Made by a program: the position numbers. DNA of 4,163 bases from a virus (lineage: Duplodnaviria; Heunggongvirae; Uroviricota; Caudoviricetes), in IMG/VR virus record IMGVR_UViG_2778261494_000021, positions 1-4,163 of that record; one strand, written 5' to 3'. Numbering within the stretch: position 1 is the first letter of the stretch; every line of letters starts with the position of its first letter. Of this stretch, positions 1-3,000 are shown piece after piece.

Positions 1-3000
1 GTGAACACGGTGGCCTCTGAAAATCCGGATGAAGCCGGTCGTTACAGCATGGACGTTGAGTACGGTCAGTACAGCGTTATTCTGTTGGTGGAAGGGTTCC
101 CGCCGTCACATGCCGGGACCATCACCGTGTATGAAGATTCTCAACCCGGTACGCTGAATGATTTTCTTGGTGCCATGACTGAGGATGATGTCCGTCCGGA
201 GGCACTGCGCCGTTTTGAGCTGATGGTGGAAGAGGTGGCGCGTAACGCGTCCGCGGTGGCACAGAACACGGCAGCCGCGAAGAAGTCAGCCAGCGATGCC
301 AGCACATCAGCCCGTGAGGCGGCAACCCATGCGACTGATGCTGCGGACTCAGCACGCGCAGCCAGCACGTCAGCCGGACAGGCCGCGTCGTCGGCTCAGT
401 CAGCGTCTTCCAGCGCAGGAACGGCATCAACAAAGGCTACTGAAGCATCAAAAAGTGCTGCCGCTGCAGAGTCCTCAAAAAGCGCGGCGGCTACCAGTGC
501 CGGTGCGGCGAAAACGTCAGAAACGAATGCGGCAGTGTCACAACAATCAGCCGCCACTTCTGCATCCACCGCGACCACGAAAGCGTCAGAAGCTGCCTCC
601 TCAGCCAGGGATGCGTCGGCTTCAAAAGAGGCGGCAAAATCATCAGAAACGAGCGCAGCCTCGAGCGCCAGTAGTGCAGCCTCCTCGGCAACGGCGGCAG
701 GCAATTCCGCGAAGGCGGCCAAAACGTCTGAGACAAACGCTAAGTCCTCTGAAACGGCAGCAGAACAGAGTGCCTCCGCAGCAGCAGGCTCAAAAACAGC
801 GGCTGCATTATCTGCCAGTGCCGCGTCAACAAGTGCCGGGCAGGCCTCAGCCAGTGCCACCGCCGCCGGAAAATCGGCAGAAAGTGCCGCATCGTCTGCT
901 TCAACAGCCACAACGAAGGCTGGCGAAGCCACTGAACAGGCCAGCGCAGCAGCGAGTTCTGCTTCCGCAGCGAAGACATCCGAAACGAACGCGAAAGCGT
1001 CGGAAACCAGCGCAGAATCCTCAAAAACGGCTGCCGCATCGTCAGCCAGTTCGGCGGCGTCATCGGCATCATCTGCGTCTGCTTCAAAAGATGAGGCGAC
1101 CAGACAAGCGTCAGCAGCGAAGAGCAGCGCCACGACGGCATCCACGAAGGCGACAGAGGCAGCTGGTAGTGCGACGGCAGCAGCTCAGAGCAAAAGTACG
1201 GCGGAATCTGCAGCAACGCGCGCTGAGACAGCGGCAAAACGGGCAGAGGATATTGCATCCGCCGTGGCGCTTGAGGATGCGAGCACGACGAAAAAGGGGA
1301 TAGTACAGCTCAGCAGTGCGACTAACAGCACTTCCGAGTCACTGGCGGCAACGCCAAAAGCCGTTAAGGCCGCGTATGAGCTGGCTAACGGGAAATACAC
1401 CGCACAGGATGCAACGACAGCACAGAAAGGGATAGTTCAGCTTAGCAACGCGACCAACAGCACATCTGAAATGCTGGCGGCAACGCCAAAGTCGGTAAAG
1501 GCAGCCTATGACCTTGCTAACGGGAAATATACTGCTCAGGACGCTACGACAGCACAAAAAGGAATTGTCCAGCTCAGTAGTGCAACCAACAGCGCATCTG
1601 AAACGCTTGCCGCGACACCGAAAGCAGTGAAAGCAGCTAATGATAATGCGAATGGTCGGGTACCTTCTGCCCGTAAGGTGAATGGTAAGGCGCTTTCATC
1701 GGATATAACACTGACGCCGAAAGATATTGGTACGCTTAACTCAACAACAATGTCATTCAGCGGTGGTGCTGGTTGGTTCAAATTAGCAACGGTAACCATG
1801 CCACAGGCGAGTTCTGTTGTTTCAATTACGTTGATTGGTGGCGCGGGATTTAACGTGGGGTCACCTCAACAGGCAGGTATATCTGAACTTGTTTTGCGTG
1901 CAGGTAATGGTAATCCGAAGGGGATTACTGGTGCTTTATGGCAGCGCACATCGACAGGGTTTACAAATTTTGCCTGGGTCAATACATCTGGTGATACTTA
2001 CGATATTTACGTTGCAATCGGAAATTATGCGACTGGTGTAAATATTCAATGGGATTATACCAGTAATGCCAGCGTGACGATTCATACGTCACCAGCATAT
2101 TCTGCTAATAAGCCGGAAGGGTTAACGGACGGTACAGTTTATTCACTCTATACGCCATCAGAGCAGTTTTATCCGCCTGGCGCACCAATCCCGTGGCCAT
2201 CAGATACCGTTCCGTCTGGCTATGCCCTGATGCAGGGGCAGACTTTTGACAAATCTGCATACCCGAAACTTGCAGCCGCTTATCCGTCAGGCGTGATCCC
2301 TGATATGCGTGGCTGGACGATTAAGGGCAAACCTGCCAGTGGTCGGGCCGTATTGTCTCAGGAACAGGACGGCATTAAATCGCACACCCACAGCGCCAGC
2401 GCATCCAGTACGGATTTGGGGACGAAAACCACATCGTCGTTTGATTACGGCACTAAATCCACGAATAACACCGGGGCGCACACGCACAGTGTGAGCGGTA
2501 CAGCCGCAAGTGCCGGAAACCATACTCATAGTGTCACAGGCGCATCAGCAGTCAGCCAGTGGTCACAAAATGGGTCAGTACATAAGGTAGTGTCTGCGGC
2601 CAGTGTGAATACAAGTGCTGCAGGAGCGCACACTCATAGTGTCAGCGGCACAGCTGCATCTGCAGGTGCTCACGCACATACTGTCGGTATTGGTGCTCAT
2701 ACGCACTCTGTTGCGATTGGCTCACATGGACACACCATCACCGTTAACGCTGCGGGTAACGCGGAAAACACTGTCAAAAACATCGCATTTAACTACATTG
2801 TGAGGCTTGCATAATGGCATTCAGAATGAGTGAACAACCACGGACCATAAAAATTTATAATCTGCTGACCGGAACTAATGAATTTATTGGTGAAGGTGAC
2901 GCATATATTCCGCCTCATACAGGTCTGCCAGCAAACAGTACCTATATTGCACCGCCAGATATTCCGGCTGGCTTCGTGGCTGTTTTCAACAGTGATGAGT

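Follow-up and report, generated by a model that had tools for sequence, protein, structure and literature searches.

Does the AT-rich centre of a side-tail-fibre gene have an ancestry of its own? We asked this of stf, the largest gene in a 4,163-nt stretch of tailed-phage DNA (the window; positions 1 to 4,163 of IMG/VR record IMGVR_UViG_2778261494_000021, Caudoviricetes). An initial annotation, made by eye, had suggested that the centre of stf, at nt 1650–2200, is a horizontally exchanged module in a lambda/StfR-like scaffold. We find that stf is a three-part mosaic. Its central block is near-identical to fibre genes of unrelated phage types and encodes a domain that is autonomous by structure prediction. 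The best explanation overall, to which we give a probability of about 0.8, is a three-part mosaic with an imported central module, homologous exchange in the flanks, and a structural knob as the role of the module.

Nucleotides 1–4087 of the window are 100% identical to many E. coli O157:H7 chromosomes. In E. coli 10671, the identical region is the tail operon of a lambdoid prophage, with the gene order tape-measure gene (H)-M-L-K-I-J-lom-stf-tfa; the position after gpJ and lom and before tfa is that of StfR-type fibre genes. The stf coding sequence (CDS) in the window lacks its first 102 nt. The complete protein has 971 aa (WP_000268883.1) and is annotated as 'prophage tail fiber N-terminal domain-containing protein'. 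Pfam searches of the window stf detected phage_tail_N at aa 1–100, three Phage_fiber_2 repeats, Collar at aa 727–774, and Phage_fiber at aa 822–835. The N-terminal domain is the PF08400 domain of lambda Stf/StfR-type fibres: aa 1–100 matched profile positions 35–134 (E = 1.6e-50), the first 34 aa lying outside the window.

Flanks and centre of stf match different phage lineages

Whole-window megablast against phages returned lambdoid phages whose matches, broken into two or three pieces, covered only ∼60% of the query. The best flank matches among phages were lambdoid (SPF_0923, PhiR29, 2H10, and the mEp phages); they stop at nt 1379–1518 and resume at nt 2165–2179. In local blastn, SPF_0923 matched nt 1–1518 at 95% and nt 2165–3377 at 98% identity, 2H10 matched nt 1–1379 and 2179–3376, and the lambda matches covered shaft, collar, and the stretch from nt 2665 through the end of tfa. 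At nt ∼1650–2165, all three lacked a blastn match. Overall, the lambdoid relatives are 95–100% identical over the flanks (nt 1–1518 and 2165–3377) with unrelated inserts between them, and the shaft (nt 232–1290) is 85–95% identical to lambda, SPF_0923, 2H10, phi458, and Cyrano. Identity to lambda itself (J02459) is 85% over nt 1–806, 87% over nt 2172–2457, and 93% over nt 2665–3378.

The inserts at the central site are 757 nt long in SPF_0923 and 1,237 nt in 2H10, and open with variant linkers (…QNGADIPGKDTFTKNIG…). We considered whether the inserts of SPF_0923, 2H10, and lambda are diverged alleles of the module in the window, and rejected this on finding no BLASTP similarity beyond the repeats and linker; there was a single, weak PHROG profile overlap (phrog_295, E = 1.6e-7). 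The alternative cassettes (L002 3019–3775 in SPF_0923; L008 2380–3616 in 2H10) open with …QKDQNGADIPGKDTFTKNIGACR…, which is near-identical to the sequence with which the Mu S' variable part begins in PDB 8JU3. The same site in lambdoid stf genes therefore also hosts modules of the Mu variable-segment type.

The central segment alone matched other phages: P1-like JL22 (90–92%), phi458, Cyrano, and CMS-2020a (75–76%), Mu-like Yersinia phages (76%), ST64B-type Salmonella phages, and the distal long-tail-fibre subunits of T-even phages (67–69%). In E. coli 94-3024, a P2-like prophage has an H gene whose N-terminal part is P2-type and which is 98% identical over nt 1621–2460; its match is continuous over nt 1303–2488, at 94% overall. 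JL22 is 93–98% identical over nt 1801–2100. A T2-type gp37 gene carries the module at aa 822–937. In a 60-nt identity profile, identity to the lambdoid prophage 32-4 is ∼100% as far as nt 1800 and ∼75% beyond it, so recombination has also occurred within the module. Searched separately, centre and flanks thus lead to different phage lineages, lambdoid for the flanks and P1-, P2-, Mu-like, and T-even for the centre, and the proposal of a horizontally exchanged module in a lambda/StfR-like scaffold is borne out.

The central block is AT-richer at synonymous sites

The initial annotation had judged the centre to be in the mid 40s % GC, between a GC-rich shaft and a less AT-rich tip. The two peptides that it had used to mark the stretch are encoded at nt 1660–2121, in frame 1 of stf. 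Total GC is 45.5% there and 46.4% at nt 1633–2199, versus 61.3% in the shaft (nt 232–1290) and 53.2% in the tip (nt 2200–2814). Windows of 200 nt across nt 1551–2200 range from 41% to 49% GC, with the lowest value (41%) at nt 1951–2150. Much of the contrast in total GC between shaft and centre (61% versus 46%) is driven by amino acids, because the Ala/Ser codons of the shaft give it a second-position GC content (GC2) of 0.78, whereas its third-position GC content (GC3) is only 0.52. The shaft is GC-rich as described, but largely for this reason.

The dip nonetheless persisted at third positions and after control for amino-acid composition. Within the coordinates of the initial annotation, GC3 was 0.37 versus 0.51 outside (Fisher p = 5e-4), and we counted 61 GC-ending codons where 93 were expected (z = −5.0). 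We repeated the comparison on a block, nt 1519–2164, that was set by the homology gap versus phage SPF_0923 without consulting composition. Its GC3 was 0.363 versus 0.521 outside (Fisher p = 5e-5), with 72 GC-ending codons versus 111 expected (z = −5.6). An unbiased two-breakpoint likelihood scan of GC3 returned nt 1525–2160, a pair of breakpoints that falls on the breaks in homology (nt 1518 and 2165). Codon usage was not uniform either: its fit to the M-L-K-I-J-lom genes of the same prophage (GC3 0.66) reached its minimum in a 215-codon window starting at nt 1513. The dip therefore lies where it had been placed, but the low-GC3 block begins ∼130 nt upstream of the proposed start; it ends at about nt 2160, and the core of the predicted domain at about nt 2142. 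No significant GC3 dip was found in a variable needle/head patch of the tip (nt 2458–2664, p = 0.62).

Homologues of the module in other phages show the same pattern. Module GC3 is 0.354 in the P2-like gene (flanks 0.50 and 0.45), 0.342 in the P1-like gene (flanks 0.44 and 0.45), and 0.25 in the Mu-like gene (flank 0.41). In the T2-type gp37 of Sf24 it is 0.147, like its surroundings (0.18–0.21). In every temperate-phage context examined, the module has a higher AT content than its neighbours, and only in a T-even gp37 gene does it match them, a pattern that fits a distinct, AT-richer ancestry of the module.

The whole stf-tfa pair (window 1–3395) has GC3 values of 0.48 and 0.42, versus 0.66 in M-L-K-I-J-lom (L001 1364–7834). 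The pair is thus far AT-richer at synonymous sites than the tail operon, and the entire fibre cassette, not the central module alone, is compositionally foreign there.

Two conserved zones bracket the block

On the left, the block borders on the tandem array that encodes the Phage_fiber_2 repeats (78% matches; Table 1). Lambdoid homology ends within this zone (nt 1379–1518) and P2-like homology starts in it (nt 1303). The repeats are common to lambdoid, P2-like, and P1-like fibres; lambda orf401, the P2-like H gene, and JL22 all have them at the protein level. SPF_0923 has one repeat copy fewer than the window, a difference that out-of-register recombination within the array could explain.

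The initial annotation had let the module begin at a linker motif downstream of the repeats. For part of the relatives this is correct: nt 1725 is where homology to P1-like fibres begins, and nt 1738 where that to the Mu-like variable segment does; both points are just past …LTPKDIG, and the motif is a true junction there. The lambdoid junction and the GC3 change-point lie upstream of it, inside the repeats, at nt 1518–1525. Linker-motif variants precede every alternative cassette.

On the right, the collar zone (nt 2165–2460) is 93–100% identical in SPF_0923, 2H10, JL22, and 94-3024, and ∼87% identical in lambda. Match starts at window nt 2165 or 2179 recur over thousands of E. coli genomes, K-12 included, and the right edge of the block (nt 2160–2165) is the N-terminal limit of the ∼215-aa T4/lambda receptor-binding protein (RBP) family. 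Repeats and collar, conserved in most of the relatives compared, would be obvious substrates for homologous exchange, to judge from these alignments. The junctions given by composition, homology, and predicted domain boundaries agree: the left one lies at nt ∼1520–1740 and the right one at nt ∼2142–2165.

The module core is predicted to fold as a jelly-roll-type sandwich

A phmmer search of 1.84 billion representative proteins placed the module in a family of 173 representative clusters, 141 of them at E≤1e-10. Its location varies widely in proteins of ∼300–2,700 aa, sometimes with two copies, and the architectures sampled pair it with phage_tail_N, Gp34_trimer, Collar, or Peptidase_S74. The conserved motifs are W.K[IL]A.V.MPQ..S, GG.GFN.G, I[VI][LI]R.GN..PKG, and NTSGD.YDIY. 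A representative-library protein of 991 aa (P0127) joins GpJ domains (FNIII-A_GpJ, Phage-tail_3) to the module and Collar; a deletion that fused J and stf in a decayed prophage is its probable origin.

Curated resources hold no model of the module. Pfam gave no hit to it in the window, and nothing beyond scattered noise (E≥0.009) for 38 family members; NCBIfam had no match to the core, and PHROGs hold the module only inside the whole-fibre families 3299, 21552, and 6722. Neither phmmer nor a core-only family profile found a relative in the Protein Data Bank (PDB). A profile built from one alignment (A1) did match Mu S and S16 gp37 in the PDB; we discarded these matches, which came only via the linker and the alternative tips included in the alignment and not via the core.

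A first AlphaFold2 run on close homologues gave a weak model, with a predicted local distance difference test score (pLDDT) of 60. With a 38-sequence family alignment, the 139-aa segment encoded at nt 1726–2142 reached a pLDDT of 95.9 and a predicted template modelling score (pTM) of 0.90. The model, a monomer, is an all-beta domain with nine DSSP strands. The module core (∼135 aa) is accordingly modelled as an autonomous all-beta domain, a single-chain jelly-roll-type sandwich.

The nearest known fold is that of WceF from Pantoea stewartii (PDB 6TGF), in which a 137-residue jelly-roll sandwich is described at residues 531–667; there the chains separate, and each alone forms an eight-stranded jelly-roll sandwich (PMC7949094). 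We take residues 531–667 to be the matching domain, judging by size and all-beta content. Phage tailspikes have similar domains. Sequence identity to WceF is only 14%, and the sequence and profile searches place the two in no common family. The WceF domain, moreover, follows an enzymatic beta-helix near the C-terminus, whereas the module here lies mid-way along a fibre that is not enzymatic.

The gp37-like tip and tfa form a separate unit

The last 228 aa of stf (aa 710–937) align end to end, to the last residue, with the T4 gp37 tip (2XGF; phmmer E = 5e-89). The C-terminal ∼215–230 aa have the collar, needle, and head of the gp37/lambda tip family, and the His-x-His repeats known from the iron-binding needle of that family (HTHS, HAHT, HGHT) are present at aa ∼795–915, aligned to 2XGF. 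The central module is not part of this family: gp37/lambda homology starts at aa ∼710–722, and the module core (aa 580–714) lies upstream and has no counterpart in lambda or in the T4 tip structure. In the description of the T4/lambda RBP family, homology does not extend beyond the final ∼215 aa and the chaperone (PMC9659904).

Tip and tfa belong together. Nucleotides 2165–3377 form one continuous block that is 98% identical to SPF_0923 and 2H10; tfa is co-inherited with the tip, and the two are a known exchange unit. The stf stop and the tfa ATG overlap by 1 nt (window 2812–2816), suggesting translational coupling of fibre and chaperone. The tip contains a second variable patch (nt 2457–2665) that covers the distal needle and head, the part expected to contact the receptor. 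This patch is unmatched in lambda, JL22, and the P2-like H gene, and 98–100% identical in SPF_0923 and 2H10.

How stf may have been assembled

The first part of the mosaic, nt 1 to ∼1518, is a lambdoid N-terminal anchor followed by an Ala/Ser coiled-coil shaft and Phage_fiber_2 repeats. The second is a probably imported block (nt ∼1519–2164) of one repeat copy, the linker, and the ∼135-aa predicted jelly-roll module. From nt ∼2165, a T4-gp37-type collar, needle, and head form the third part, inherited together with tfa. In fibre genes, the block moves among lambdoid, P2-like, P1-like, Mu-like, and T-even phages, and its AT-richness at synonymous sites is best explained by an ancestry that differs from that of its flanks. 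Exchange most likely proceeds by homologous recombination, on the left in the repeats and linker, on the right in the collar, and in the conserved core of the module itself; the partners would be co-resident prophages or infecting phages. Relaxed homologous recombination of lambda stf-tfa with the fibre genes of the Rac and Qin prophages has been observed experimentally (PMC3945230). The module probably tolerates transplantation because each chain folds its own jelly-roll between trimeric connectors.

In the assembled trimer, the module would most likely form a knob where the distal half-fibre begins, immediately ahead of the collar, and would then set fibre length and geometry. This placement follows from its position after the repeat/hinge region and before the collar. 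In Ur-lambda Stf, a hinge lies at aa 394–422, knobs occur in the distal part, and a proximal coiled coil is the counterpart of the Ala/Ser shaft (PMC12617516). The primary receptor binder is expected to be the gp37-like tip, with Tfa.

Could the central module itself be the host-range determinant, a lectin-like domain for O-antigen/LPS (lipopolysaccharide) sugars that is exchanged because it alters specificity? The initial annotation had left receptor specificity and fibre geometry side by side. Auxiliary glycan binding by the module is possible, given the weak resemblance of its predicted fold to known domains, and a role in fibre geometry as a knob appears the better supported of the two; we consider a host-range role for the module doubtful. 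Slightly more doubtful is a compound version, in which the ∼135-aa module would be an uncurated, widely mobile domain family (lambdoid Stf, P2 H, P1/Mu variable segments, T-even gp37, and fibres with endosialidase-type chaperones), would provide a second, lectin-like glycan site, and would have an AT-rich, T-even-like origin marked by its low GC3. If the module were lectin-like, host range would be set by two independently exchangeable units, module and tip.

Weighing the alternatives

Several observations count against an imported module with its own ancestry. The likelihood gain of the GC3 scan was equalled by 9 of 300 codon permutations, and segmentation of the gene by GC3 with a Bayesian information criterion (BIC) penalty called no break, so that composition alone is a moderate signal. 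These results, with the shaft's GC2 of 0.78 against a GC3 of 0.52, are what one would cite for the AT-rich stretch being a by-product of amino-acid composition or chance, with no separate ancestry. We regard this as highly improbable, as the homology-defined block kept its deficit of GC-ending codons under amino-acid control, its composition breaks fell on its homology breaks, and three other phage backgrounds hold homologous modules that are AT-richer than their flanks; amino-acid-controlled GC3 and the matching breakpoints largely refute a pure amino-acid or chance account. The other reservations concern origin and structure. A T-even-like source for the AT-richness is a compositional hint only, the T-even homologue being 54% identical, and no donor can be named for the same reason. 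The structure of the module is a monomer prediction, and trimer packing and any ligand binding are conjectural. Finally, one may equally well say that N-terminal part and tip came together around the block as that the block was imported between them. In the alternative built on this idea, the module is ancestral, and a lambdoid N-terminal anchor or the tip and tfa recombined onto a repeat-module-collar unit like that of P2-like H; the continuous match to P2-like H (nt 1303–2488, with 98% over nt 1621–2460) and the separate mobility of tip and tfa (nt 2165–3377) speak for it. It describes the same mosaic, and its polarity alone differs. Against it stand the location of the gene, behind J and lom in a lambdoid tail operon, and the fact that both flanks are common to several lambdoid phages with different central cassettes, so that central replacement needs fewer events. 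We judge an ancestral module unlikely, though it is the most credible of the alternatives.

Import of a central module also leaves room for a different mechanism, namely placement by site-specific recombination, with a tail-fibre invertase of the Gin/Cin/Pin/Hin family acting at a crossover site. Sandmeier 1994 is credited in PMC3945230 with proposing invertase-made exchanges between unrelated phages, and the same paper cites invertases as probable drivers of ancient stf exchange. The module does occur inside the invertible variable segments of Mu-like YpM_5 and P1-like JL22, beside hin or cin and with clear 26-bp crossover sites upstream, and invertase genes or remnants lie downstream in the relatives phi458, 2H10, and 32-4. 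The window, however, lacks the hallmarks of an invertase-switched segment of the Mu G, P1 C, or e14 P type. It contained no gix/cix-like site, either with ≤3 mismatches to Mu gix or with the core pattern A[AT]ACCNNGGT[AT]T, which recovers the crossover sites in the Mu-like and P1-like loci. Near the window stf there is no serine recombinase (invertase) gene, and downstream of tfa there is no inverted fibre segment of the Sv'/U' kind; manganese catalase and ferritin-like genes follow tfa instead. Even in the invertible loci, the crossover sites lie ∼100 nt (Mu-like) and ∼600 nt (P1-like) upstream of the module and not at its edge. The lambdoid and P2-like breakpoints, by contrast, fall within long high-identity stretches (repeats, collar, module core), which is the signature of homologous exchange. 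Placement of the module by an invertase is thus improbable, more so than a lectin-like role for it.

Relation to known fibres

The gene resembles lambda (Ur-lambda) Stf/StfR-type fibres in its locus after J and lom, PF08400 anchor, Ala/Ser coiled-coil shaft, Phage_fiber_2 repeats, gp37-like tip, and Tfa. It differs from lambda Stf in the jelly-roll module, which has no counterpart there, the lambda sequence from repeats to collar being short and unrelated, and in the distal needle/head patch at nt 2457–2665. With the T4 gp37 tip (2XGF) and the T4/lambda RBP family (Magaziner and Salmond 2022), it shares its last 228 aa, the collar, the His-rich needle, and a chaperone gene directly after; that family is defined by the last ∼215 aa only, and the AT-rich module lies immediately upstream, outside it. 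Like the mosaic fibres of P2 (H), P1 (S), Mu (S), and T-even phages (gp37), the gene carries segments common to otherwise unrelated phages: nucleotide identity over the module is 98% and 78% with P2-like H, 92% with P1-like S/Stf, 76% with Mu-like Sv, and 68% with T2-type gp37. Unlike in those classical cases, the exchanged unit is an internal domain and not the distal tip, and the window copy has neither invertase nor crossover site.

Features of the window

The coordinates are collected in Table 1. Over the Ala/Ser shaft, alternative-frame and antisense open reading frames (ORFs) of 172–335 aa occur at nt 296–1303 (plus strand), 396–1145 (minus), and 740–1258 (minus). Their translations are Pro/Arg/Gln-rich or Ala/Asp-rich; they look like by-products of GCN/AGC/TCN codon repeats and not like genes.

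Downstream of tfa, the window holds the C-terminal part of a manganese catalase family gene on the minus strand (window 3515–4087, ∼40% GC). Where the locus is intact, two ferritin-like genes and a general stress protein come after manganese catalase, making up a non-phage-looking cargo directly behind tfa. The remainder of the window (4088–4163) is the left end of an IS3-family IS629/IS1203 element (TGAACCGCCCCGGAAATCCTGGAGACTAAACTCC…ATGACTAAAAATAC) whose insertion interrupts manganese catalase on the minus strand. In most O157:H7 genomes, the match to the window ends at nt 4087; a few (F3113, ERL04-3476) have the IS629/IS1203 insertion.

Table 1. Position of the stf parts and of tfa in the window, with the evidence for each
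Feature	Position (nt)	Strand	Evidence
stf side-tail-fibre CDS, 5' partial	1..2814	+	ORF list, E. coli 10671 identity, Pfam
Ala/Ser-rich shaft	232..1290	+	GC 0.613, GC2 0.78, GC3 0.52; identity of relatives
132-bp tandem repeat, 2.6 copies, encoding Phage_fiber_2 repeats	1292..1637	+	Tandem Repeats Finder, Pfam, breakpoints
Exchanged low-GC3 block (last repeat copy, linker, jelly-roll module)	1519..2164	+	Homology gap versus SPF_0923 and 2H10; GC3
Linker motif	1678..1731	+	Sequence, blastn starts, aligned junctions
Module core, predicted jelly-roll-type sandwich	1738..2142	+	Nine DSSP strands
T4 gp37-type receptor-binding tip (collar, His-rich needle, head)	2128..2811	+	phmmer versus PDB 2XGF
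Collar and proximal needle of gp37-like tip, conserved right-hand zone	2165..2460	+	Identity profile; Pfam Collar nt 2179–2322
tfa tail-fibre assembly chaperone	2814..3395	+	Pfam Caudo_TAP (PF02413) E = 3e-45

Prevalence and significance

The arrangement is common. Of 5,426 complete E. coli genomes, 1,313 match nt 1200–2500, a region that takes in both junctions, at ≥80% coverage, and 1,948 contain the module in some form. That lambda, T4, P2, P1, and Mu have fibre segments in common is a classical observation (Montag 1989; Haggard-Ljungquist 1992; Sandmeier 1992, 1994, as cited in PMC3945230). Our finding is an instance of this known mosaic process, not a new kind of system, and the understanding of phage biology is unchanged by it, lambda/P2/P1/Mu/T-even fibre mosaics having been described since 1989–1994. 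What is modestly new is a common module without a curated family or solved structure, whose predicted fold matches the WceF jelly-roll. For annotation, the value lies in a module that occurs in about a third of complete E. coli genomes and has no Pfam or NCBIfam model. For fibre engineering, the gene offers natural splice points at the Phage_fiber_2 repeat plus linker and where the collar begins. More generally, stf offers a well-populated worked example of how tail fibres are assembled from exchangeable units.

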